NCBI GenBank assembly: GCA_013378385.1
Contig: JACAFS010000036.1
Coordinates: forward strand, 1-10,089
Source: Nitrososphaerota archaeon
GTDB lineage: Archaea; Thermoproteota; Nitrososphaeria; Nitrososphaerales; UBA57
Reading direction: 5' to 3'
DNA: 10,089 bases
Translations under genes and position numbers: made by a program
Notes under the pieces: generated by a model
Told to the model about the DNA's origin: nothing
The model's input: the letters and a program-made list of their open reading frames with translations, nothing else
The model's database searches: none
In this document: piece by piece, positions 1-10,089 of the stretch
Layout of the letters: each line of letters begins with the position of its first letter
How positions within the stretch are numbered: the first letter of the stretch is position 1

Positions 1-57
1 ATCTTGGACATTCAAGGATTTTCTTGATAGTCCTTCTTCTGTTCTTACGTATGGCAT
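1..57 (-). CDS. 5' end (first 19 codons) of an unidentified gene running off the left edge
   Basis: Minus-strand ATG at 57..55, then an open frame MPYVRTEEGLSRKSLNVQD to position 1. TATA-like CTTTATATG (plus coords 80-88) lies ~27 nt upstream, the same spacing as other genes here. Too short to assign a product; absent from the ORF track because it is truncated. Confidence 0.3.
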   Translation of the reverse strand, partial: MPYVRTEEGLSRKSLNVQD

Positions 58-79
58 AATATATGTAAAAAACTAGCTA

Positions 80-88
80 CATATAAAG
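80..88 (-). promoter_or_regulatory. TATA-like box for the truncated left-edge gene
   Basis: Minus-strand CTTTATATG centred ~27 nt upstream of the ATG at 57. Confidence 0.3.
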
Positions 89-95
89 AATAAGC

Positions 96-101
96 AAAAA
101 A
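96..101 (-). terminator. Oligo-T tract (T6 on minus strand) downstream of the 86-aa ORF
   Basis: A6 on the plus strand at 96-101 is T6 on the coding strand, ~54 nt after the TAA at 155-157. Archaeal termination commonly uses oligo-T runs. Weak evidence in an AT-rich genome. Confidence 0.2.
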
Positions 102-154
102 TTATGAACATTCATTCAATATTAATTTAACATTCTAGACGTATATATAATAAT

Positions 155-415
155 TTATCTTTTTGTTATCTTTTTGAGCGGCGTTTGCCTATTCCAAGCT
201 AATCCTCTCTTGTATCTGTATATGTCATTTTTAAGATATTGGACGTCCTCTGTTGTTTCTTTTATTTTCTTTTCTAAACGTCGTTTTCCAAAAAACCCGT
301 TTTCCGTGAGAATCTCTTTCTTTAGACTAGCTAGTTCCTTCTTCTTTTGCTTTAATAGCTCTCCAGCTCTTTCTTCATAGGGACTTAACATTACCATTAC
401 CATATTGTGATGCAT
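155..415 (-). CDS. Small basic, predicted coiled-coil protein of unknown function (up to 86 aa; start ambiguous)
   Basis: Only long ORF in the 58-476 gap; Lys/Glu-rich heptad-like sequence (ELLKQKKKELASLKKEI, RRLEKKIKETTEDVQYLKNDIYRYKR). Four in-frame ATGs in the first 9 codons (415, 403, 397, 391). Divergent from priL. No family recognised. Confidence 0.5.
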   Translation of the reverse strand: MHHNMVMVMLSPYEERAGELLKQKKKELASLKKEILTENGFFGKRRLEKKIKETTEDVQYLKNDIYRYKRGLAWNRQTPLKKITKR

Positions 416-446
416 TAGTCTTTTTTAAGATATCTATTTTATTGAA

Positions 447-456
447 TTATTATAAG
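447..456 (+). promoter_or_regulatory. TATA-like box upstream of priL
   Basis: TTATTATAAG centred ~25 nt upstream of the ATG at 477; no SD-like purine run, consistent with a leaderless mRNA. Confidence 0.35.
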
Positions 457-476
457 AAACCAAGTCCTATAACTCT

Positions 477-1550
477 ATGATAACTATATTGAATTATATT
501 ATCGGCGAAGATGACGAATCAAAGTATCCATTTCTACCGGAAGTAGGAAAACAAATGTCTGGATATAATATTCAAGACTTTCTCAATTCCGACTTACCGA
601 TTCTTGAAAATGCAAAAGATCGCATCATTTATGGTCTTAAAAACGGAACATCCCCAGAATTCAACGAAACCATCGAAATGAAAACCATTGCAAAATTCTC
701 TTTTCCAATTTCTATGTTGATTATCAAGTCTACTAATCAAAATTATCTCATCTCAAGATTTGCTTTGGCAGAATCACGTCGTGTTGAAGAACTATTACAC
801 AAAGAAAATCCTGATGTTATACCACAAATTTTCAAAACCATTTTAAACATACAACTTAGTCAAAGCAAAGACGTTACTGACAAATCAAATATAAACTCAG
901 ATTTTCTCACTAAGAACCGATTCAAATACAGAATAAATTTAAGCGATTATCTATCTCGTTCAATATCTCTACCGAAAAACCAATGGAGGCTTGTTAACAG
1001 ATCAGTTTCAGGCGGCTACGTATTTCTTACGCAAGATGAATTGATTGCATTGCTTAGGGAAGAAATTTATCAAATGATTCGCTCAAAGATTGACGATTTA
1101 AAAATTCCTCCTGAATTATTGGAGGAAGCAGCATTGAAATCGACTCTTGAGCAGATATTGAAGGTAGCTCCAAGGCCTCCCAAGGCTAAAATACGCGTAT
1201 TTTCTGGCGAATATCCTCCGTGCGTAGCCAAGGCCATTGAGATGATTCAAAAGGGCGACCAAGTTCCTCACTCAGGTAAATTCCTTATGACTACTTTTCT
1301 TCTACGTGCAGGAAAAACAGTTGATGAAATTATAGACATGTATCCAACAAGTCTTGGTTTTAACCAGAACATAACACGATATCAAGTCGAACATATTGCA
1401 GGCTTAAAGGGTGGCGGTACAAAATACGAAGTGCCGAGCTGCAGCACAATGAAGATGAAAGATTTCTGCTACAAAACCGATGCATGTGGCACAATAAAAA
1501 ATCCCTTGCAATTTAACGGCAAAACACAGGTGAAAAAACATGGAAGATAA
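477..1550 (+). CDS. priL: DNA primase large (regulatory) subunit PriL
   Basis: 357 aa. N-terminal KYPFLPEV...LPILENAKDRI and C-terminal YPPCVAKAIE ... YEVPSCSTMKMKDFCYKTDACGTIKNPLQF match archaeal PriL, including the four-Cys 4Fe-4S domain. 11-nt overlap with priS. Confidence 0.92.
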   Translation: MITILNYIIGEDDESKYPFLPEVGKQMSGYNIQDFLNSDLPILENAKDRIIYGLKNGTSPEFNETIEMKTIAKFSFPISMLIIKSTNQNYLISRFALAESRRVEELLHKENPDVIPQIFKTILNIQLSQSKDVTDKSNINSDFLTKNRFKYRINLSDYLSRSISLPKNQWRLVNRSVSGGYVFLTQDELIALLREEIYQMIRSKIDDLKIPPELLEEAALKSTLEQILKVAPRPPKAKIRVFSGEYPPCVAKAIEMIQKGDQVPHSGKFLMTTFLLRAGKTVDEIIDMYPTSLGFNQNITRYQVEHIAGLKGGGTKYEVPSCSTMKMKDFCYKTDACGTIKNPLQFNGKTQVKKHGR

Positions 1551-2694
1551 AACAGTTAATCTTCTAAAGAAAACATTCAGTGAATATTATAAACGAAATA
1601 AATCTCGTATATCCGAACCATCAAGATTCACTGAAAGGGAATTTGGGTACTGGCCTTTTGATGGATTCATGCAGCGACATATGGCAGTAGTGAAATTCTC
1701 CACATTTATTGACGAGCTAATATTAAATGCACCAAAGGGCGTGTACGCTTCTTGTTCATACTATGACGATCCTTCACTTCCTATGGAAGAAAAAGGATGG
1801 AATGGAGGAGATCTCGCATTTGATATTGACTGTGATGACTTGGAACTAAAATGTAAACGCGAACACGATAGATGGATATGTCGGGATTGTAAAAAAATTG
1901 GTATAGGTCTAAGACCAAAAGCATGCACTAAATGCAAAGAAAATAAAATCATTGTTCTTAACTGGTCATGTGTTATGTGTCTCGATGCAGCTAAAGAAGA
2001 AATCATAAAACTAAATGATATCCTTATGGACGACTTTGGAATTAACAAAAAAGAAATTTCAATATTCTTTTCTGGAAACAAAGGCTACCACTTGACCGTG
2101 GAAAGTTCAGTATACGAAAAATTGGATAAGCATGAACGAAGAGAGATTGTTAATTATGTTCTAGCCAAAGAACTCGATCTAAAGTATATGGGATTCGATA
2201 AAAAAACATCATTTAACGACCTAATTTCACGCTTGCCTCAATCTAACGAACCTGGTTGGCGAGGAAGACTGATGGAATTCTTCGAAAACTATGAAGACAG
2301 TTCTCTGAAAAACTTTAACAAAACCGAGAAAGTTGCAAAAATCTATAACTCTAAAACTATAAAATTCAATTCACTTTTTGAAGAGGGAATAAAAAACGTT
2401 CGTTCTACTATAGATCCATTAGTAACTTCCGACACCTCAAGAATCTTTCGATTGCCAAACTCTTTACATGAAAAAAGCGGTTTGTGCAAAACTCTGTGCA
2501 ACAGTATAGATAGTTTTGATCCGTATACGCAATCAGTGGTATTGGACGACGAATTAATAAAAATTAATATTAATTTCTGTCCCAAATTCACGCTAAAAGG
2601 CATATCGTATGGTCCATATAAAAGCCAAACATTGTCATTGCCCAAATACGCGGCAATATATTTGATGTCAAATAAACTAGCACAGGTCGCCTAA
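1540..2694 (+). CDS. priS: DNA primase small (catalytic) subunit PriS
   Basis: 384 aa. Archaeo-eukaryotic primase motifs: acidic catalytic LAFDIDCDD, FSGNKGYH, SRIFRLPNSLHEKSG. Zn-knuckle insert WICRDC-x12-CTKC plus extra Cys (LKC, SCVMC). Confidence 0.92.
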   Translation: MEDKTVNLLKKTFSEYYKRNKSRISEPSRFTEREFGYWPFDGFMQRHMAVVKFSTFIDELILNAPKGVYASCSYYDDPSLPMEEKGWNGGDLAFDIDCDDLELKCKREHDRWICRDCKKIGIGLRPKACTKCKENKIIVLNWSCVMCLDAAKEEIIKLNDILMDDFGINKKEISIFFSGNKGYHLTVESSVYEKLDKHERREIVNYVLAKELDLKYMGFDKKTSFNDLISRLPQSNEPGWRGRLMEFFENYEDSSLKNFNKTEKVAKIYNSKTIKFNSLFEEGIKNVRSTIDPLVTSDTSRIFRLPNSLHEKSGLCKTLCNSIDSFDPYTQSVVLDDELIKININFCPKFTLKGISYGPYKSQTLSLPKYAAIYLMSNKLAQVA

Positions 2695-2721
2695 TACAAT
2701 TTCTTTTAAAAAATACACCCG

Positions 2722-2733
2722 CTATAGTTATAT
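2722..2733 (+). promoter_or_regulatory. TATA-like box upstream of the GINS gene
   Basis: CTATAGTTATAT centred ~32 nt upstream of the ATG at 2760. A second AT-rich candidate, TTTTAAAAAATA, lies at 2704-2715. Confidence 0.3.
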
Positions 2734-2759
2734 CTAATTCAGACATTAGAATAAATTAC

Positions 2760-3323
2760 ATGTCTTCTCAAGAATTAACAAAAAACCTCTATTCTATTTT
2801 GGAATCAGAACGAAAAACTAATGAACTTACTAATATTCCGGAAGATCTTTATTGCAACATTACCGATCATATTAGTTCAATTACTAATGAAGAAAACACC
2901 AGTTTGCAGAACATACAAGAGATGGTAAATAACAAAGAAAAAGAAATTCTGTCCAATCTATTACAAATCCTTCTTCGTATACGGCTCGCAAAAGCTCTTG
3001 GTGATCAAAATAACATCAATATTAACCTCCTCACCAATGAAGAAAAATATGTCCTAGAACCTCTGATTAATGCATCCAAAAGAAACGTCAAATTACTCAA
3101 AGCGATAAATGACGGTAGTTTGTCATTCCTTCATGGATTAGACAGACACGACGTAAATCAATATTTGGCAGTTAAATTCCGTGAGGATTCGCCATCTGCT
3201 GTTGGTATAGATTCTCGCACATATGGCCCATTCAAGCAAGGAGATATGGCAATATTGCCCACAGATAACGCTAAATTGCTTATTCAGCAGGAAAAAGTAG
3301 AAGAATTAAATATGGAACTTTGA
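2760..3323 (+). CDS. gins51: GINS complex subunit, Gins51/Gins15 type (A domain then B domain)
   Basis: 187 aa. Helical N-terminal part (LYSILESERKTNELTNIPEDLY ... LLQILLRIRLAKAL; LTNEEKYVLEPL). C-terminal beta-rich part VKFREDSPSAVGIDSRTYGPFKQGDMAILPTDNAKLLIQQEKVEEL fits the archaeal Gins51 pattern. Position next to priS matches the known archaeal gins-primase linkage. Confidence 0.68.
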   Translation: MSSQELTKNLYSILESERKTNELTNIPEDLYCNITDHISSITNEENTSLQNIQEMVNNKEKEILSNLLQILLRIRLAKALGDQNNININLLTNEEKYVLEPLINASKRNVKLLKAINDGSLSFLHGLDRHDVNQYLAVKFREDSPSAVGIDSRTYGPFKQGDMAILPTDNAKLLIQQEKVEELNMEL

Positions 3324-3340
3324 TAAACTATAAAAGTTCA

Positions 3341-3356
3341 AATAATATATTTTAAG
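3341..3356 (+). promoter_or_regulatory. TATA-like box upstream of rpl44e
   Basis: AATAATATATTTTAAG centred ~33 nt upstream of the ATG at 3382. Confidence 0.3.
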
Positions 3357-3381
3357 ATAATTCATTACTGATTTACTGACC

Positions 3382-3660
3382 ATGAAAATAGGAAAAGAAA
3401 CAAAACGACATTGTCCAAAATGCAACAAGCATACAGTTAATGCTATTTCTATCTACAAAGCAGGCAAACAAAGAGGAAGCTCATTGGGAGCCCGTAATCA
3501 CGAAAAAGATCGCAAGGGTTATGGCGGACAAAAATTCCCAGAACTCAAACGTACTGCGAAAACAACCAAGAAAATAACTCTGCGTTACAAATGCAAAGAA
3601 TGTAGTAAAGTGTGCATGGGTCGTGGATTTAGAATCCGAAAACTGGAGATAATAGCATGA
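3382..3660 (+). CDS. rpl44e: Large-subunit ribosomal protein L44e (eL42)
   Basis: 92 aa, highly basic, CPKC...CKEC zinc ribbon, KGYGGQ motif; typical length and sequence for archaeal L44e. ATGA overlap with rps27e. Confidence 0.95.
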   Translation: MKIGKETKRHCPKCNKHTVNAISIYKAGKQRGSSLGARNHEKDRKGYGGQKFPELKRTAKTTKKITLRYKCKECSKVCMGRGFRIRKLEIIA

Positions 3661-3854
3661 AAACTTCTAGAATACATATTCCAGAACCTCGTAGTTCATT
3701 TATCTCAATTCAATGTCCGGAATGCGGAACATCTCGTGTTGTATTTTCGGCTTCGACAAGTAAAATAAACTGCGAAAAATGTAATACTCTTCTTTTAGAA
3801 AATACTGGTGGTCATGCAAAAATCCACGGAACAAACGCTTCTCGAGTTGATTAA
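3657..3854 (+). CDS. rps27e: Small-subunit ribosomal protein S27e (eS27)
   Basis: 65 aa, FISIQCPECG...INCEKC zinc ribbon; the canonical partner downstream of L44e in archaea. Confidence 0.95.
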   Translation: MKTSRIHIPEPRSSFISIQCPECGTSRVVFSASTSKINCEKCNTLLLENTGGHAKIHGTNASRVD

Positions 3855-6017
3855 ATGTCTATAGTTGATTCCATAAAATCTATCAAGCTTGATTCTATAA
3901 GACCCGTAACATCAAGACAAACACTTGTAATTGTAATGACTTTGTCTATTATATTCTCTGCAGCACTTATGCTGAGAATCTTTCCTGTAAAATACGGTTA
4001 TTTTCTCAATGAATTCGATCCCTTCTTTGACTATTATGCATCAAAATTTATTGTTGACCATTTTGACGCAAGTGGAATTAGTGGTTTATTAGATTATTTT
4101 AGTTGGCATGATTACAGAACTTGGTATCCAGAAGGAAGACCTGTAGCTAGAACTTCTCAGGTCGGTCTTCACTTTGCTGGCGCCTTATTTTATATTTTAG
4201 CAAGGGATGTTTTTGGATTAACTAGTTCCCTATACGATTTCGTCGTCATCTTTCCGCCAATCGTTGGTGCGCTTAGTATAATTCCAGTCTACTTGATTGC
4301 ACGTCGTGTTACTTCTGAAGGAGGAGCACTTTTCGCCAGCTTGCTTATTGCATTCTCAACGTCAATAATCCAAAGAGGCAATCTTGGTTGGTTCAAATCT
4401 GAGCCTTTTGCGTTACTTCTTTCTCTATCCGGTAGCTATTTATTCCTAACAATGTTTGACCCCGATCGCTCACACCGTAATCTTGTGCTACGTGCTGTAT
4501 TGGCAGGAACACTTATGGGAATATCACTCACAGCATGGGGAGGATCCCAATTCTTTAACATTGTATTCGCTGTATTGATTCTTGTTATACCGTTCATCAA
4601 AGTTGACCAACAGAAAGCCGTTTTTACCACATCGATCTTCGTAGCATTATATATTATCACAGCTGCAATATCTCCAAGACCAGGAGCAGCTTTTATTCTT
4701 TCTCCAGCAGGTCTAGCATTATTAGGTTCACTCGCTTTTGCTATTCTTGCAAATGTTATCAGACATTATTCACATGCATTTGAATATGTTAATATTCTCA
4801 AGAATACAGTAATTGGACTGTTCTTTAGCGCAGTTGTAATTCTAAGTTTAGGATTCTTATCTGAAGTAAGTGGACGCTATCTTACTGTAATCATGCCATT
4901 TCGAAGAAGTGGAGTTCCGTTGGTCGAATCTGTAGCAGAACACTTTGTTCCAACTGGAGCGCAGTTCTTCCAAGAATATATGATTCTATTACCATTTGCC
5001 GTGTTTGGAGCTATGCAATTACTTAACAAACGTGACATTAGTTCTGTCTTCGTTCTCGTATTGGCAGCTTCGGGTGTTTACATATCTGGTTCATTCTCCC
5101 GTTTAATGATCTTCTCGTCCATTGCCATTGCTCTTCTTGCAGCAGTAGGGTTCATCACAGTTACATCAGCTATATTTCGTCCATTATTGACAGGCATTGG
5201 AAAACAAGCTACCGGTAAATCGGAAACCCGGACAGGACTGAAAATTATGTATTCACTCTTCATGATTGTAGTACTATGTTTCCCAGTTATTGCACCATCT
5301 TACGGATACAATTGGGTGCTATCCGCAGACATACCAACTAGTATTTCTAATTCGGGCAGTACGTTCAGAGGACACGATCCAAGTTTCCTTGAAGCACTTG
5401 CATGGATGGAATCTTCTACTCCAGAAGACTCTGTAATTGCTGCTTGGTGGGACTATGGATATTGGATTACTGTCATGGGCAATCGGACAAGCCTGGCGGA
5501 CAACGCAACAATTAATGGCACAAGAATCGAAGTTCTTGGTCAAATGTTTATGTCGCCGGAGGAGGAATCATTGGAAATTCTAGATTCACTTGACGCAGAT
5601 TATGTTTTAATATTCCTAGCAGGAACAAAAACCGGAAACCAACAATTTGGAGATCTATATCTTCTGGGCGGAGGCGGAGACGAAAGTAAGAAACAGTGGT
5701 TTATACGAATTGGAGGATTTGATGAAGCTCAATTTCTAGAGGCTGATGGATTTTCACCTAATGAGAATTTATGGGAGAATTCATTCCTTGGTCGACTTAT
5801 GCCATTTACATGGGAGCTCGCCATAGATGCCGAAAATAATGTCTATCAAGAATACGAATTCAATCCTGAAACAACTGATCTTTACAAATATCAGATGAAA
5901 TATCCTGCAGACGGAAATGGTCCTTTAAGACTAGCATTCGCATCATCAAGTTTGCAACCAGATGCGCCAGAAGGTCGTTTTAGTGGTGTATTGATTTACG
6001 AAATAGTAAAAGACTAG
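3855..6017 (+). CDS. aglB: Dolichyl-(mono/di)phosphooligosaccharide-protein glycosyltransferase AglB (STT3 homologue)
   Basis: 720 aa, ~13 N-terminal TM helices, early acidic loop NEFDPFFDYY. Catalytic WWDYGYW at nt 5445-5465 (W531-W537), followed by NRTSLADNATINGT. DK-type motif GDESKKQWFIRIGG (D609 at nt 5679). ATG directly abuts the rps27e TAA (TAAATG). Confidence 0.9.
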   Translation: MSIVDSIKSIKLDSIRPVTSRQTLVIVMTLSIIFSAALMLRIFPVKYGYFLNEFDPFFDYYASKFIVDHFDASGISGLLDYFSWHDYRTWYPEGRPVARTSQVGLHFAGALFYILARDVFGLTSSLYDFVVIFPPIVGALSIIPVYLIARRVTSEGGALFASLLIAFSTSIIQRGNLGWFKSEPFALLLSLSGSYLFLTMFDPDRSHRNLVLRAVLAGTLMGISLTAWGGSQFFNIVFAVLILVIPFIKVDQQKAVFTTSIFVALYIITAAISPRPGAAFILSPAGLALLGSLAFAILANVIRHYSHAFEYVNILKNTVIGLFFSAVVILSLGFLSEVSGRYLTVIMPFRRSGVPLVESVAEHFVPTGAQFFQEYMILLPFAVFGAMQLLNKRDISSVFVLVLAASGVYISGSFSRLMIFSSIAIALLAAVGFITVTSAIFRPLLTGIGKQATGKSETRTGLKIMYSLFMIVVLCFPVIAPSYGYNWVLSADIPTSISNSGSTFRGHDPSFLEALAWMESSTPEDSVIAAWWDYGYWITVMGNRTSLADNATINGTRIEVLGQMFMSPEEESLEILDSLDADYVLIFLAGTKTGNQQFGDLYLLGGGGDESKKQWFIRIGGFDEAQFLEADGFSPNENLWENSFLGRLMPFTWELAIDAENNVYQEYEFNPETTDLYKYQMKYPADGNGPLRLAFASSSLQPDAPEGRFSGVLIYEIVKD

Positions 6018-6169
6018 TCATATTTCTCAGCGATTCTCAACCTTGCATATTTATCATCAGGAGAGAATTTAGCTGGATGAGGAGACAAGGTCTTTTCATT
6101 ACATTTAGGGCATGTTTCCTGTAAGCTATACTCTGAACACTTTGGGCATTTCTTTAAAAGCTTTTTCAT
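6014..6169 (-). CDS. nop10: H/ACA RNP component Nop10 (51 aa), absent from the supplied ORF track
   Basis: Hand translation of the minus strand: MKKLLKKCPKCSEYSLQETCPKCNEKTLSPHPAKFSPDDKYARLRIAEKYD*. CPKC-x9-CPKC zinc ribbon plus HPAKFSPDD matches archaeal Nop10. Its ATG overlaps the aIF2alpha TAA (TAATG); its TAG overlaps the aglB TAG. Confidence 0.88.
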   Translation of the reverse strand: MKKLLKKCPKCSEYSLQETCPKCNEKTLSPHPAKFSPDDKYARLRIAEKYD

Positions 6170-6960
6170 TATGTCTGTTCCTTCGAGAATGAAAACGAAG
6201 CTTTCTTTCCCATAGACTTTTTTATCTTTTCCAAAGCAGATGTAAGATGCTTTTCTGCCGCTTTGTAATCCTCCGCGTACACAGTTATTTTATATTTAGG
6301 AGATCCTAGATATGATATCTCTAGTTTGTTTCGTGACCTGTTTGATAAAACTTCAGACATTGAATCCTTGATTAAATTAATTCCATTAGGATCATGTGTT
6401 GTAACTTGAATTATGCCTGTCACATACACCATGGGGATTGATATCTTGGTCTTTGAAATATTTACTAATTCCGTAGTTACTTCCTTCGGAATATCCAATT
6501 TATCAAATGTCTTCTCGCCATTTTTTATCAATTCCTCCAACCCAGAGTAAACCGTTCCAAATTGATCTTCCATCATGTCGAAATATTGATTCTTCTGATT
6601 CTCAGTAATCTTTAATCTTGTCTGCAACGAATCGAATATAGTTCTCGATTTATCGTATCTCTTTACAGACAATAGCTTCTGTTTTCTATCTTCTCCAGAA
6701 ACCTGTCTTAACGAAAGGTCTACTTCTGCTCTTGCAGAATCTATTCTGATGACCTTTAATACGACCTTCTGATTCACAGTAATAAATCTGGATATGTTCT
6801 TAACCCAACCTGTAGCAATCTCTGATACATGCAAAAACCCATACATGTTGTTGTATTCCTCTAAGACAACCTTCGCTCCATGACTAGACATGCTTGTAAC
6901 TAAAGCTAGGACCAATTCCCCTACTTCTGGCATATCTTGATTTTCTATCTCTTGTTTCAT
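6169..6960 (-). CDS. eif2a: Translation initiation factor aIF2 alpha subunit
   Basis: 263 aa. N-terminal S1/OB domain (PEVGELVLALVTSMSSHGAKVVLEEYNNMYGFLHVSEIATGWVKNISRFI...KVVLKVIRIDSARAEVDLSLRQVS), then helical and alpha-beta domains of typical length. Followed by nop10 as in most archaea. Confidence 0.9.
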   Translation of the reverse strand: MKQEIENQDMPEVGELVLALVTSMSSHGAKVVLEEYNNMYGFLHVSEIATGWVKNISRFITVNQKVVLKVIRIDSARAEVDLSLRQVSGEDRKQKLLSVKRYDKSRTIFDSLQTRLKITENQKNQYFDMMEDQFGTVYSGLEELIKNGEKTFDKLDIPKEVTTELVNISKTKISIPMVYVTGIIQVTTHDPNGINLIKDSMSEVLSNRSRNKLEISYLGSPKYKITVYAEDYKAAEKHLTSALEKIKKSMGKKASFSFSKEQT

Positions 6961-6986
6961 CTATAGAGAGATGTACTTATAGATTA

Positions 6987-6996
6987 GATATAAAAA
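6987..6996 (-). promoter_or_regulatory. TATA-like box upstream of aIF2alpha
   Basis: Minus-strand TTTTTATATC centred ~32 nt upstream of the ATG at 6960, inside the 43-nt gap after the upstream gene. Confidence 0.35.
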
Positions 6997-7003
6997 TTTC
7001 ATA

Positions 7004-8395
7004 TTAGATAGAAGAAGTTGATAATAACCAAAGACCAAGTACAGTATAACCAACCATGAGCAGCAATATGGGCGCTTGACTTATGATTGATTTCTTGCTA
7101 TCCTTGAAAATTCTAAGAGATATTCTGTGTGCTACATAAACTGAAAGTATGTGACCAATCACAATTACAGCAACCTGGTAATTCCATAGCAATATGAAAT
7201 CTATTGCCCTAACAATCTCATAAGAACTTGTTCCAAATATATCCCAACCAAAACCAAACGGATCAGAAATCAGCTTAATTATCAGCTGACCGTTCAAAAA
7301 GAAATACGAAGAATAATGCGCTAAATGGTAAACAATTGATATAGGCAGAAGAGCTGGAACAAATCTTTGCGCAAGATCTACAACCGTTATGTCAGTTTGC
7401 GTAATAACTTTGGCTATTGTTACAAACGAATAGAATACAGAGAAGAATACAATAAATGACAATAAAATTCCTATTGTATTAACATAAATTACATCTAATC
7501 GTCCGCTTCCTCCAAATACATCTATTCCGATAAAATCATACCAAAACAAAGTAGAAATCAATCCATCGAACGACACCACGGATAATATCAAAATCAGAAA
7601 ACAAAGTTGATCAAAACGGTAACGTACGTCAAGTAGCCCAGATGCAATGGGACGTAACAGTATCTTTCCATCTGATGTTACACGAGTCATAGAAAAACTC
7701 GAAACAAAATTAAAGAAAACAGTAAAAGGTTCGCAGTTATTCAACCATTTGTCCTTTCCAAAGACCCGCATTCCTGCCAAAACAATTACCGAATAAACAA
7801 AAATTATGTTTCCGAGAAACTGGGGATATGCAGGTGTAGGATAGACCAACTCTATCCATGCAAATATGAGGAAAAACCCGAAGGCAGGCCATGACTTTAA
7901 CTTCTCTGGATACTGTCTCAGAGGCTTCTCATTGAACTTGATTAATTCAAAAATGTTTTTCCATGGATTTACAAAATTCCAACTGTCGCCAAACAGTATG
8001 TGCAGCCATATGAATCCTCCCCACCAAATTACCCAAACAAATGTTGGTGCAAAATTCTTTATTGGAAATTGCGCTCCCAATACTCCAGTAAGAATAGTCA
8101 GTATGAACAATCCAATCGAAATAATTTTGAAAACGTTCAACAGTGATTTATTCTTGTATAACGTATTGACAAAACCAAGATTGCGTAAATTATAAGTCCG
8201 ATACGAATCGTCGTATGACTTGCTCTTTACAAATAGACTAATTATGGCGAATGAAGCGATTACCGCAGCTCCACCACCTAACCAATACAGATATCCAGGA
8301 ATGGGAAGATCTATCTTCGAACCAAAACCATGAGCATAAGCATTGGGCAGAAGCAATAATTGAAGTAGGATTATGGTAAAAAATATTTTCTTCAT
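7004..8395 (-). CDS. Uncharacterised polytopic membrane protein (~11 TM) with signal-peptide-like N-terminus
   Basis: 463 aa. MKKIFFTIILLQLLLLPNAYA|HGFGSKIDLPIP (AxA-type cleavage site, then His22). About 10 further hydrophobic helices. His pairs in C-terminal helices (SIVYHLAHY; IGHILSVYVAHR). No transporter family confidently recognised. Confidence 0.8.
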   Translation of the reverse strand: MKKIFFTIILLQLLLLPNAYAHGFGSKIDLPIPGYLYWLGGGAAVIASFAIISLFVKSKSYDDSYRTYNLRNLGFVNTLYKNKSLLNVFKIISIGLFILTILTGVLGAQFPIKNFAPTFVWVIWWGGFIWLHILFGDSWNFVNPWKNIFELIKFNEKPLRQYPEKLKSWPAFGFFLIFAWIELVYPTPAYPQFLGNIIFVYSVIVLAGMRVFGKDKWLNNCEPFTVFFNFVSSFSMTRVTSDGKILLRPIASGLLDVRYRFDQLCFLILILSVVSFDGLISTLFWYDFIGIDVFGGSGRLDVIYVNTIGILLSFIVFFSVFYSFVTIAKVITQTDITVVDLAQRFVPALLPISIVYHLAHYSSYFFLNGQLIIKLISDPFGFGWDIFGTSSYEIVRAIDFILLWNYQVAVIVIGHILSVYVAHRISLRIFKDSKKSIISQAPILLLMVGYTVLGLWLLSTSSI

Positions 8396-8429
8396 TTCTT
8401 GAACGTATATCTAATTGTGTAATCTCAAC

Positions 8430-8436
8430 AAAAAAA
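8430..8436 (-). terminator. T7 tract between the 267-aa gene and the membrane-protein gene (terminator or attenuator; ambiguous)
   Basis: A7 on the plus strand is T7 on the coding strand, 10 nt after the TGA at 8446-8448. The only TATA-like element for the downstream gene (TTAGATATAC, ~8404-8413) sits just ~15 nt from its ATG. So this may instead be a read-through bicistron, or the T-tract may belong to a promoter. Confidence 0.25.
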
Positions 8437-8445
8437 CTTATTGAA

Positions 8446-9249
8446 TCAAGCCTTAGGCATGACTTCCAAGAATCCAATCAATGTGGCTTTTTCCTCTTCT
8501 TCATGTCCATGTTCCTCTTCCATGTCCATTCCTGGTTCCATCATGCTTTCTATTACAAATGTTTGACTTGCTTGGTTCCCGATTAACTTGTGCTCAGCAT
8601 TAACCAAGCTAACGTAAACTGTATGCTCGCCTTTTGTTATTGATTTCAAAATATACGCTTTCTCATCAAATACCATCAATGCAGAATGATCGTCATCTGT
8701 GATCTCTTCATCTAATTTAATATGCCAATGTATCCCTTTAGAAGGAAATTCTACACCCTCAATTTCCACCGAAACAGTTGCCATATTGTCCATTACCATC
8801 ACTGATTCAATACTAATCTTCGCATTACTCAAATCCATATTCATGTCACCCATATCGCCCATATCATCTTCTCCAGAATGTATCTCAATATCAAACCTGC
8901 CTGGGAGCGTCGCAGAAAAACTCAATACCCTAACCTCATCTGCCATGAGCATTATCTCATGATCGTATTCGTGTATATGAAACCTCAGATTCTCATCAGA
9001 TTTTATGTTAAGCAATACTTGATCCCCTACTTCTACCGAAATTAAAGGCGGATCTAAAGTCATCTTTCGATTAATTATATTTATTTCAAATTCCTTTAGT
9101 TTCTCTTCATCGACCTCTTTAGAAACTTTAATCTCTATCTGATTTTCAACAGATTCATCTTCTGTGCCAGTAAATGTGAAAGCAACCATTGCTAGAAAAA
9201 TTAAACCAACTATTCCAACTAGAAAATTCTTATTTTTTTGTGTACTCAT
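8446..9249 (-). CDS. Membrane-anchored extracytoplasmic two-domain protein: Cys-less cupredoxin-like domain, a second beta-sandwich-like domain, and Met/His-rich motifs
   Basis: 267 aa. N-terminal anchor FLVGIVGLIFLAMVAFTFTG. Cupredoxin-like pattern LISVEVGDQVLLNIKSDENLRFHIHEYDHEI...LSFSATLPGRFDIEIH, lacking the Cys ligand. MGDMGDMNMD linker. Second domain has GIHWHIKLD...KGEHTVYVSLVNAEH. Tail MMEPGMDMEEEHGHEEEE. Confidence 0.8.
   Translation of the reverse strand: MSTQKNKNFLVGIVGLIFLAMVAFTFTGTEDESVENQIEIKVSKEVDEEKLKEFEINIINRKMTLDPPLISVEVGDQVLLNIKSDENLRFHIHEYDHEIMLMADEVRVLSFSATLPGRFDIEIHSGEDDMGDMGDMNMDLSNAKISIESVMVMDNMATVSVEIEGVEFPSKGIHWHIKLDEEITDDDHSALMVFDEKAYILKSITKGEHTVYVSLVNAEHKLIGNQASQTFVIESMMEPGMDMEEEHGHEEEEKATLIGFLEVMPKA
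8833..8862 (-). repeat. Short imperfect tandem codon repeat encoding MGDMGDMNMD
   Basis: Plus strand atc cat att cat gtc acc cat atc gcc cat reads, on the minus strand, as ATG GGC GAT ATG GGT GAC ATG AAT ATG GAT (residues 130-139). Confidence 0.6.
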
Positions 9250-9272
9250 TTCTAATATAGCACTAATTGTTT

Positions 9273-9284
9273 CTATAATAAAAA
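9273..9284 (-). promoter_or_regulatory. TATA-like box upstream of the 267-aa gene
   Basis: Minus-strand TTTTTATTATAG centred ~30 nt upstream of the ATG at 9249. Confidence 0.35.
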
Positions 9285-9296
9285 TCTCACTACGTT

Positions 9297-9338
9297 AAAG
9301 AACTGATGCTAACACTGTTAACAAAAATTCAGTTGTTT
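9297..9338. repeat. Nested inverted repeat between the Cys-rich gene and the 267-aa gene
   Basis: Outer arms AAAGAACTGA (9297-9306) and TCAGTTGTTT (9329-9338) are complementary at 9/10 positions. Inner 11-nt palindrome TAACAcTGTTA at 9310-9320. Lies 4 nt downstream of the stop at 9342-9344 and upstream of the TATA at 9273-9284. Confidence 0.5.
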
Positions 9339-9341
9339 AGA

Positions 9342-9716
9342 CTATCCAGCGCCACGTGGTGCTTGACATACTCCAGCTGGGGAATGACATCTACCAGTCT
9401 GTGCATTGCATACTTGGGCTCCTCCACATCCACAGTCGAATTGACATGTATTGCAAAGTTCGTGAGCATCACATACACCATTACCACATGAGTTCGATAG
9501 AGTTGTACAGGTTTCTGCATCCATCCAATTTGGACATTTATATTTTGGTGCATTTGGAAGTAAAGGTGATATGTCGCCAACCGCAGAGATAGATAACGAT
9601 TCATCTTCTTCACCTATTCCTAACATTGGTACTCCACCTGTAAAGATCATATAACCTACTATTGCAGTTGCTATGAGAAGCGGAATAGGAATAAATTTTT
9701 CATATTGGGCTGACAT
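9342..9716 (-). CDS. Membrane-anchored small protein with extracytoplasmic 11-Cys domain
   Basis: 124 aa. N-terminal anchor FIPIPLLIATAIVGYMIFTGG, acidic linker. C-terminal KCPNWMDAETCTTLSNSCGNGVCDAHELCNTCQFDCGCGGAQVCNAQTGRCHSPAGVCQ contains a CGNGxCDxxExCxxCxxDCG-type module. Own TATA-like box ~31 nt upstream. Confidence 0.7.
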   Translation of the reverse strand: MSAQYEKFIPIPLLIATAIVGYMIFTGGVPMLGIGEEDESLSISAVGDISPLLPNAPKYKCPNWMDAETCTTLSNSCGNGVCDAHELCNTCQFDCGCGGAQVCNAQTGRCHSPAGVCQAPRGAG

Positions 9717-9741
9717 ATACGACTACTAGCGAGTATTTCAC

Positions 9742-9753
9742 TAATAAATATTA
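9742..9753 (-). promoter_or_regulatory. TATA-like box upstream of the Cys-rich gene
   Basis: Minus-strand AATATTTATTAG centred ~31 nt upstream of the ATG at 9716. Confidence 0.35.
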
Positions 9754-9755
9754 CT

Positions 9756-9761
9756 AAAAAA
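9756..9761 (-). terminator. Oligo-T tract (T6) downstream of the cupredoxin gene
   Basis: A6 on the plus strand is T6 on the coding strand, ~21 nt after the TAA at 9782-9784. Confidence 0.25.
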
Positions 9762-9781
9762 TTATTAATTTTATCACTAGA

Positions 9782-10089
9782 TTATCTGGGTATTACGGTA
9801 ATGGTTCCCATCATGTATGGATGTGGCTTGCAAAAATACTGGAATGTACCAACCTCATCAAATACGAAACTTGCATAGTCCTGTCTCTGCATATCCATGT
9901 CGAATATATTGTCCGGAGAAGTCACTGAATGAATTACATCATCTTTATTGTACCAAGTTACCTTCGTTCCTTGTACTATTGTTAATCCATGAGGTTCAAA
10001 ATTATAATTCTCGATATCTATCTGAATTTCACCCATTCCAATCACATCAAGAATCAAAAAGAAGGTCTTGACCGTGTTCTGGCTCTTTG
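9782..10089 (-). CDS. Type-1 (blue) copper protein, plastocyanin/amicyanin-like cupredoxin; 5' end probably outside the window
   Basis: Full T1 Cu ligand set: His in DDVIHSV, then FCKPHPYMMG (Cys-x2-His-x3-Met), ending TITVIPR. The track's 'M' at 10057 is really TTG. The frame stays open to 10089 (...KSQNTVKTFFLILDVIGMG...), so the N-terminal signal or anchor likely lies beyond the edge. An internal ATG at 10036 is the alternative start. Confidence 0.85.
   Translation of the reverse strand, partial: KSQNTVKTFFLILDVIGMGEIQIDIENYNFEPHGLTIVQGTKVTWYNKDDVIHSVTSPDNIFDMDMQRQDYASFVFDEVGTFQYFCKPHPYMMGTITVIPR

Follow-up and report, generated by a model that had tools for sequence, protein, structure and literature searches.

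A large unannotated family of ten-helix membrane proteins with a predicted N-terminal histidine, encoded beside a cupredoxin-fold partner and possibly involved in copper handling

The DNA analysed here, referred to as the window, is a stretch of 10,089 nucleotides (positions 1 to 10,089, forward strand, of contig JACAFS010000036.1 in GenBank assembly GCA_013378385.1; Nitrososphaerota archaeon), a low-GC (~35%) housekeeping stretch of an ammonia-oxidising-type archaeon. Its plus strand encodes PriL, PriS, Gins51, L44e, S27e and AglB/STT3, while the minus strand carries the genes for Nop10, eIF2-alpha, the membrane protein under study, a cupredoxin-like protein, a small Cys-rich protein and, truncated at the end of the window, a blue-copper protein. 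The gene under study (7004..8395, minus strand, as are all features given below unless noted otherwise) is an intact open reading frame (ORF) running from 8395 to 7004, with the first ATG following a stop as its start, and specifies a precursor of 463 amino acids with a predicted signal peptide and ten predicted transmembrane (TM) helices. We refer to its product as the ten-helix protein. A 50-nt spacer separates it from the upstream gene (8446..9249), which encodes the cupredoxin-like protein of 267 amino acids, henceforth the partner. Within the spacer (8396-8445), a run of seven Ts directly follows the stop codon of the partner gene and a TATA-like AGATATA is found ~15-20 nt before the ATG; the ten-helix protein gene may have its own promoter, yielding a leaderless transcript, besides read-through from the partner gene. 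The order of the gene and its neighbours is found again on a 55-kb marine contig.

The ten-helix protein belongs to a family that is real, large and unannotated, and that is undescribed in the literature searched. A word-indexed search returned at least 1,300 relatives, none carrying a Pfam domain, and an exhaustive profile search yielded 6,949 clusters (50% identity) at E<=1e-3, 1,714 of them at E<=1e-30. The nearest named relatives are entered as "hypothetical protein [Nitrososphaerales archaeon]", and the annotated names of eight relatives were "hypothetical protein" in all cases where there was a name at all. In a genome scan, bacterial members were encountered in Dehalococcoidia and other Chloroflexota, in Alpha-, Beta- and Gammaproteobacteria (including a Bradyrhizobium isolate) and in Rubrobacter, and further members in Methylomirabilia, Rokuibacteriota, Tectomicrobia, Nitrospiraceae, Caldarchaeum and Nitrososphaerota. 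The family is mostly found in Chloroflexota, Proteobacteria and Nitrososphaerota, and is widespread in organisms that lack copper membrane monooxygenases (CuMMO). A broad family of unknown function had been considered in a first-pass annotation made from the sequence alone, and the cluster counts bear this out. That annotation had based the idea on similar N- and C-terminal motifs in uncharacterised actinobacterial membrane proteins: the motifs do agree with the family consensus at either end of the mature protein (H-G-F-G-x-R-x-D-L-P-V-P, with TM1 immediately after, and L-M-V-G-Y-T-x-x-S-L-W), but the family is not mainly actinobacterial, Rubrobacter being the sole lineage of that phylum encountered.

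Searches for known relatives were consistently empty. Pfam and NCBIfam scans of the ten-helix protein assigned 0 families; Pfam searches of 29 relatives at E<=5 retrieved no CopD (PF05425), no HupE/UreJ or HupE_UreJ_2 (PF04955, PF13795) and none else; and phmmer and profile searches of the PDB gave 0 matches. Comparison of the structure model with the PDB in Foldseek produced noise (best E 0.12, TM-score 0.10-0.20). When the family profile was aligned with that of CopC-CopD fusions using hhalign, the probability was 0.2%, that is, no CopD homology. No curated profile or solved fold matched for Ctr, ZIP, P1B-ATPase, NnrS, Caa3_CtaG or other named metal transporters and assembly factors, and a scan for the CPx motif found none; TM10 has a Ctr-like M-x3-M in most relatives, though not in the window's protein. 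Nor did the family resemble cytochrome b, CcsA/CcmF or CtaA. The REXXE motif of Ftr1-type iron permeases is absent from the ten-helix protein and occurs, at a frequency expected by chance for such a regular expression, in 7 of the 196 sequences of the family alignment, which covers diverse members with identities down to ~35-40% and underlies all conservation figures below. An iron permease of the FTR1/EfeU type could be ruled out on this ground and on the lack of a Pfam match, and enzymes of the GT-C, MBOAT or O-antigen-ligase type were set aside because no fold matched despite the many structures solved. The profile and fold searches thus leave the protein where the first-pass annotation had left it, outside CopD, Ctr, ZIP, P-type ATPases and every other named family.

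Residues 1-21 of the precursor (MKKIFFTIILLQLLLLPNAYA; 8333..8395) constitute a predicted Sec-type signal peptide with KK in the n-region, an h-region of 13 residues, Pro at position -5 and AYA at positions -3 to -1. The next codon (8330..8332) specifies His22, the predicted first residue of the mature protein (AYA|H), which is 98% conserved and followed by a GFGx[RK]xDLPxP tether to TM1. The N-terminus is complete and the conserved His present in 175 family members, and this residue is at +1 in all 175; position -1 is occupied by Ala (162 members) or Gly (10), position -3 by A, V, T or S (163), and the -1/-3 cleavage rule is obeyed in ~93-98%. Their presequences (median 25 amino acids) have a net positive n-region and an h-region of 13 residues (median), with Pro or Gly between -4 and -7 in 147, and are not conserved outside these features. 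Conservation of a cleavage site within an otherwise unconserved presequence is the pattern of a peptide that is removed. Judged from the sequences, the combination of predicted signal peptide and His at +1 is a near-invariant trait of the family, well beyond what chance would produce, and we infer that cleavage after residue 21 would expose His22 as the amino terminus. Lipoprotein and Tat signal peptides were set aside, there being no lipobox Cys and no consistent RR.

The AlphaFold2 model of the ten-helix protein, calculated with a 29-sequence alignment, has a predicted local distance difference test score (pLDDT) of 86.5 and a predicted template modelling score (pTM) of 0.84, and features ten long membrane helices after an N-terminal segment, of which residues 2-14 are modelled as a helix. 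Hydropathy and the positive-inside rule, applied over the 196 sequences, agree with it. Lys and Arg together number 5, 5, 8 and 2(+2) in loops 1, 3, 5 and 9, and 0-1 in the mature N-terminus, in loops 2, 4, 6 and 8 and in the C-terminus, a distribution that predicts ten TM helices with both termini outside (N-out, C-out). This topology is independently supported by natural C-terminal fusions to extracytoplasmic domains. One such extension is a Cu/Zn superoxide dismutase (SOD) with a terminal anchor (Sod_Cu, E 6.6e-34); in its contig the partner is encoded upstream and the fusion protein has the N-terminus ALA|HGFG. Other C-terminal extensions consist of tetratricopeptide (TPR) repeats (two representatives), a YtkA-like domain (E 3.6e-4, below the cutoff) and, in Bradyrhizobium-type loci, an SBP5-like domain of ~400 amino acids (PDB 7fi3, E 1e-7).

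The ten-helix protein holds six His in total, four of which occupy invariant family positions: His22, His360 (98%), His415 (97%) and His423 (98%). TM8 carries Tyr356-His357-x-x-His360 in its predicted outer membrane half (7316..7330; motif SIVYHLAHY, residues 353-361), with Tyr356 conserved in 96% and His357 in 67%. In TM9, His415 and His423 are eight residues apart (7127..7153; motif IGHILSVYVAHR, residues 413-424), predicted to lie mid-membrane and in the inner leaflet, respectively. TM10 has a conserved face in the alignment, made up of Q440, P442, (M443), M447 (97%), Y450 (95%) and T451 (7046..7078; C-terminal motif MVGYTVLGLWLL, residues 447-458), and most relatives feature M443-x3-M447-x4-M452 (73/97/45%). 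The conserved residues of TM8, TM9 and TM10 fall on one helical face in each helix, with Gln440 and Met447, like His423, predicted towards the cytoplasm. At the opposite side of the membrane, Glu182 (96%; 7850..7852) and Asp277 (97%; 7565..7567; FDG motif) are predicted at the outer ends of TM4 and TM6, and the extracytoplasmic loop S377-D-P-F-G-x-G-W-D-x-F-G-T389 (7229..7267) is nearly invariant (Asp378 97%, Pro379 99%, Trp384 94%). This loop, NPW and PTFVWVxWW are the outer-loop sequences with very high conservation; Tyr201 is likewise conserved (98%).

The first-pass annotation had placed the gene and its motifs correctly, and its expectations of a signal peptide ending before a His and of some ten further helices agree with the statistics over 175 and 196 sequences, respectively. 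Of the paired His in the C-terminal helices that it had listed as possible ligands, His360, His415 and His423 are invariant, and His357 is less conserved. His132 of WLHILFGDSW (residues 130-139; codon 8000..8002), which it had also listed as a possible ligand, is usually Ser in the family and, being conserved in only 8%, is not a family ligand.

About 40% of the family contain an insert with six Cys, CX2CX3CX5-6CX2CX2C, in cytoplasmic loop 5, at a point that lies between residues 232 and 250 of the window's protein. Exactly this spacing occurs in 55 of the 196 sequences; the insert is absent from the window's protein and from roughly half of the family. A zinc ribbon and an Fe-S site are both possible identities for the insert, which probably explains the name "polyferredoxin" at JGI and a weak FtrD-like match.

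The second component is the partner, which consists of an N-terminal TM anchor and a cupredoxin-fold domain. All ORFs of 85 loci of the family were clustered, and upstream counts were made on the 83 non-redundant loci with enough upstream sequence: in 53 of these, archaeal and bacterial, a relative of the partner is encoded directly upstream on the same strand. The AlphaFold model of the partner is of moderate quality (pLDDT 65). In Foldseek it retrieved the CuA domains of ba3 oxidase, Brucella FtrB (8vuk), EfeO-Cup (7wgu) and 4hci, with a probability of 1.00 against cupredoxins and a root-mean-square deviation of ~2 A over ~75 columns, the best local matches being CuA domains. Going by this model, the fold is that of a cupredoxin, a Greek-key beta sandwich. 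The Pfam Cupredoxin_1 profile scored 17 bits with the window's partner, below its cutoff of 27, and 29.1 bits, above it, with the freshwater ortholog. The invariant core comprises D85, H91-x-H93-G-Y-D96, F111, A113, G117-R-F119 and H124, and there is a conserved C-terminal strand, LEVxP. The HxH motif is His91-Ile-His93 (8971..8979) and the third invariant His is His124 (8878-8880); with Asp85 and Asp96, these three are the candidate ligands. The partner alignment has no conserved Cys, which speaks against a Cys-thiolate centre of the type 1 (blue) or CuA kind. In the window's partner, a second beta domain carrying an HWH motif is inserted, and there are linkers rich in Met, Asp and His (DDMGDMGDMNMD, MMEPGMDMEEEHGHEEEE). 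These linkers are reminiscent of Met-rich motifs in copper-resistance proteins of the periplasm.

Several other neighbours recur in the clustered loci. A secreted, C-terminally anchored Ig-like protein of ~180 amino acids is encoded in 32 loci (its similarity to the YtkA-like module of CopCD fusions is weak: hhalign E 4e-4, probability 35%), and a His-rich TM protein in 14. Directly upstream of family members in eight Dehalococcoidia loci are fusions of CopC, CopD and cytochrome c (Pfam E of 5e-20, 3e-17 and 1e-12, respectively). Nine proteobacterial loci encode a beta-propeller distantly related to methanethiol oxidase (MtoX/SBP56-like, a copper enzyme), matching NF052453 with an E of 3e-11, far below the model cutoff, and archaeal loci of the family contain genes for blue-copper proteins. 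In a freshwater archaeal locus, an SBP_bac_6 (iron-type) gene stands beside the pair formed by the genes for the partner and the ten-helix protein. Alphaproteobacterial and Caldarchaeum loci include Liv-type ATP-binding cassette (ABC) transporter genes and a secreted protein of ~390 amino acids with a predicted G|HE N-terminus.

Two of these neighbourhoods hold additional proteins that may begin with a His. Each CopC-CopD-cytochrome c fusion in Dehalococcoidia is accompanied by another protein predicted to start with a His. Just upstream of such fusions, a family of secreted, C-terminally anchored proteins with the predicted N-terminus AxA|H(D/E) is encoded (L043 1618-2724, L059 2618-3505, L064 2844-3632, L066, L073, L077 and L079). 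The arrangement is YcnI-like, with no match to DUF1775, and the HxH beta domain inserted in the partner of the window also occurs in some of these proteins. The ~390-residue protein matches no family and is a candidate N-terminal-His protein by its predicted start, G|HE(L/V)P(V/M)YPSYYP. It is encoded between the Liv-type ABC genes and the pair, the family member there being fused to the SBP5-like domain (L036 4229-5410, L046, L048, L058, L071 and L075 in alphaproteobacteria; L028).

In the window itself, the edge-cut gene (9782..10089) represents the 3' part of a gene for a membrane-anchored blue-copper protein of the plastocyanin/amicyanin type (H...C..H..M). The 91-amino-acid TTG-start ORF listed for it is an artefact, because the window edge cuts the gene; the ortholog in the related marine archaeal contig L085 (4321-4992) has 223 amino acids and an N-terminal TM anchor. 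Between this gene and that of the partner lies the gene for a TM-anchored protein of 124 amino acids (9342..9716), whose tail, predicted to be extracytoplasmic, is very rich in Cys (CGNGVCDAHELCNTCQFDCGCGG...). It matched no Pfam or NCBIfam family and is kept at the equivalent position in L085 (5081-5455); its membership of the system is uncertain. Elsewhere in the window, the Nop10 gene (6014-6169, minus strand; 51 amino acids, zinc-ribbon CPKC...CPKC) is shorter than the default ORF length cut-off and overlaps the eIF2-alpha stop codon by 1 base and the 3' end of AglB by 4 bases, and a Lys/Glu-rich ORF of 86 amino acids (155-415, minus strand) lies upstream of PriL on the opposite strand.

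As the favoured, though tentative, reading, we propose that the ten-helix protein may be the membrane core of a so far undescribed two-part copper-handling system, as a non-homologous analogue of the CopC-CopD/YcnJ or the "anglerase"-HupE systems. In favour of copper stand the cupredoxin fold of the partner, the CopCD and blue-copper genes nearby, the Met motifs, the fusion to SodC and the MtoX-like neighbour; the conserved three-His centre of the partner, the Dehalococcoidia fusions, the SOD fusion and the blue-copper genes give the copper reading of the first-pass annotation support of an independent kind. Signal peptidase would cut off residues 1-21, so that the mature protein would start at His22 (hereafter His1), which a rigid GFGxRxDLPxP tether to TM1 would hold at the outer membrane surface. 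The free amino terminus and the imidazole of His1 could then bind Cu on the extracytoplasmic side, either in a histidine brace, as in CopC, lytic polysaccharide monooxygenases (LPMO), PmoB and X325, or in a mono-histidine brace, as in YcnI and the anglerases; the invariant outer-face residues Glu182, Asp277, Asp378 and His360 would probably contribute to the site. In a full brace, the tau-N of a second His completes a T-shaped N3 site around the Cu; candidates for this His are His360 or His91, His93 or His124 of the partner. The membrane-anchored partner would swap copper or electrons with the His1 site by means of its HxH...H centre and its Met/His-rich linkers. From there, copper might be relayed across the membrane over the conserved face of TM8-TM10 (Tyr356/His360, His415, His423, Met447/Tyr450) or, alternatively, be passed to extracytoplasmic client cuproproteins. 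The direction could be import or supply to exported cuproproteins, and the latter would agree with the fusions to SodC and TPR and with the enzymes encoded nearby. We infer copper as the metal, as well as the identity of the ligands, the transfer between partner and ten-helix protein and the direction of transport.

A number of observations sit uneasily with this proposal. Seven of the 83 loci have none of the recurrent copper-type neighbours, and some carry Liv-type or Opp-type ABC transporters or SBP5-like fusions, which point away from copper. An N-terminal His chelates Ni and other metals as well as Cu (PMC12537917), and His, Asp and Glu ligands would suit Zn or Fe. Of the three Met of TM10, the window's protein has lost two and retains M447 alone. 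Residues 16-27 have a pLDDT <50 in the AlphaFold2 model, His22 thus being without a confident position, and the model consequently lends no structural support to a meeting of His1 with the helix His. Internal duplication (TM1-5 versus TM6-10) was not detectable at the sequence level, so that a repeat of the secondary-carrier type was not found. Outer loops as strongly conserved as these are more usual in enzymes or tight complexes than in simple permeases, and the SOD fusion could equally mean protection against superoxide that a redox enzyme produces. Finally, the literature search found no paper describing the family, the nearest concepts being YcnJ/YcnI and the "anglerases".

Because loop conservation is so extreme, a redox enzyme has to be considered: the ten-helix protein would be the catalytic membrane subunit of a new copper-dependent oxidoreductase, the cupredoxin serving as an electron-transfer or second-metal subunit, and the site would combine the His1 brace with outer-leaflet Asp, Glu and His, after the manner of PmoB CuB/PmoC Asp/His/His or of oxidase subunits II/I. 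The order of the genes, cupredoxin before polytopic protein, mirrors that of oxidase subunits II/I, and the best local matches of the partner are CuA domains. The HxH of the partner and the N-terminal His resemble the CuB ligand set of particulate methane monooxygenase (pMMO), His33/His137/His139. Blue-copper electron carriers adjoin the pair in archaeal loci, the SOD could scavenge superoxide from the redox site, and the six-Cys insert of ~40% of the family, one member of which is weakly FtrD-like, could hold an Fe-S cluster. We nevertheless hold this to be unlikely, since neither the fold nor the sequence of the family resembles that of haem-copper oxidases, of CuMMO subunits or of other enzymes with a solved structure, its invariant His are limited to four, half of its members (the window's protein included) lack the Cys insert, the clustered loci contain no conserved substrate-, quinone- or NAD-related neighbour genes, and the TPR, SBP5-like and YtkA-like fusions resemble accessories of chaperones or transport. 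It is more doubtful still that partner and ten-helix protein together make up a new class of membrane-bound copper enzyme with a His-brace active site at the outer surface, as in LPMO or pMMO; if true, it would occur widely among aerobic bacteria and be constitutive in the ammonia-oxidising archaea of the sea, a group in which the search for further copper enzymes continues.

The same His1 capture and transmembrane relay could also serve another metal (Ni, Zn, Fe or a chelate), in uptake of the oxidase/permease type or fed by a substrate-binding protein, a variant that we regard as unlikely. N-terminal His proteins such as DUF4198, Ni-SOD and HupE bind Ni as well as Cu (PMC12537917), and the Cupredoxin_1 group to which the partner belongs includes the iron-uptake proteins FtrB and EfeO (PMC11966278). 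SBP5-like fusions, an adjacent Opp/Nik-type ABC transporter and the iron-type SBP_bac_6 gene in the freshwater archaeal locus point the same way, and SodC needs Zn too. The CopC-CopD-cytochrome c neighbours, the Met-rich motifs in partner and TM10, the blue-copper neighbours and the cuproenzyme-like MtoX relative point to Cu instead, and REXXE, the hallmark sought for Ftr1-type iron permeases, is lacking as described above. That the N-terminal segment stays uncleaved, or that His22 is an axial haem ligand or a structural contact in a haem- or quinone-binding or metal-unrelated membrane protein, is improbable and the least likely of all, given the cleavage-site statistics and the spacing of the His. 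Cleavable signal peptides are indeed uncommon on polytopic prokaryotic proteins, residues 2-14 are modelled as a helix ahead of the poorly positioned His22, and the Trp-rich motifs of the outer leaflet, together with the four invariant His, bear a loose resemblance to haem-handling proteins. Against this stand the -3/-1 rule, short h-region, Pro/Gly and positive n-region that 175 otherwise unconserved presequences have kept, and the absence of similarity to cytochrome b, CcsA/CcmF and CtaA. A two-haem cytochrome b was set aside in particular: His415 and His423, only eight residues apart, leave no room for two haems, and bis-His pairs would require a fourth intramembrane His, which is lacking.

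Little is understood of the ways in which copper is captured by cells and loaded onto the enzymes they export, least of all in ammonia-oxidising archaea, which rely on copper for their energy metabolism and for which no uptake route is known (PMC7785015). With thousands of sequence clusters, no name in domain databases and a predicted fold unlike solved structures, the family described here could be a third type of metal permease or insertase with a tethered His1, next to CopCD and anglerase-HupE. Confirmation of such a role would extend models of copper homeostasis by a further component and open a way to study how copper is supplied in the abundant nitrifiers of the sea, in SAR202-type Chloroflexota and in rhizobia.

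Several known systems combine a cupredoxin with a large membrane protein. FtrABCD, EfeUOB and Fet3p/Ftr1p likewise have a Cupredoxin_1-type extracytoplasmic protein encoded beside a polytopic permease; however, the HxH...H of the partner contrasts with Asp118/His121 and the EXE motifs of FtrB (PMC11966278), the ten-helix protein lacks the Pfam match and REXXE of FTR1/OFeT, and its loci lack P19 or DyP companions. Subunits II and I of haem-copper oxidases resemble the pair in that a TM-anchored cupredoxin subunit is encoded upstream of a large polytopic subunit with invariant intramembrane His, but the partner has no CuA Cys, and ten TM helices with four invariant His compare with 12 and six in the oxidase, without similarity in fold. 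In CuMMO, PmoB/AmoB combines an N-terminal His exposed by cleavage with a cupredoxin HxH on one chain, features which would here be split between the ten-helix protein and the partner. Intramembrane sites of the Asp/His/His type are present in PmoC and would have a counterpart in the ten-helix protein, and CuMMO and the present family both occur in ammonia-oxidising archaea. There is, however, no similarity in fold or sequence, the family extends widely beyond organisms with CuMMO, and a catalytic role is pure speculation.

The closest parallels are with systems in which a His1 is tethered to a permease. In Bacillus subtilis, YcnJ is a CopC-CopD-YtkA protein that exchanges Cu(II) with YcnI between membrane-tethered extracellular domains before its proposed import (PMC12362106). 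Like CopC-CopD/YcnJ, the ten-helix protein has an N-terminal His at the outer face, predicted to be exposed by signal-peptide cleavage and joined to a polytopic domain with intramembrane His; as with YcnJ/YcnI, a YtkA-like module is an optional C-terminal addition and the adjacent gene encodes another extracytoplasmic protein tethered to the membrane, here a putative copper protein. Unlike CopC-CopD, it has no globular CopC domain, its His1 being only ~12 residues away from TM1, it has ten TM helices where CopD has eight, the partner has a cupredoxin fold where YcnI has DUF1775, and the sequences are not related. In the "anglerase" (Ang-1/Ang-2)-HupE/UreJ-2 permeases, His1 is 100% conserved and binds Ni or, with nM affinity, Cu (Nat Commun 2025, PMC12537917), and the anglerase is proposed to "fish" metal and feed it to the mouth of the permease, which has three membrane His (PMC12537917). 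The predicted cleavable signal peptide on a polytopic protein, the conserved His1 and the three intramembrane His are common to both, whereas the ten-helix protein has neither a HupE/UreJ Pfam match nor a beta-sandwich Ang domain, is larger with its ten TM helices, and comes with a separate, conserved cupredoxin partner. Since it is homologous to neither, the ten-helix protein, if its proposed role is correct, would be a new, convergent variant of the YcnJ/anglerase logic.

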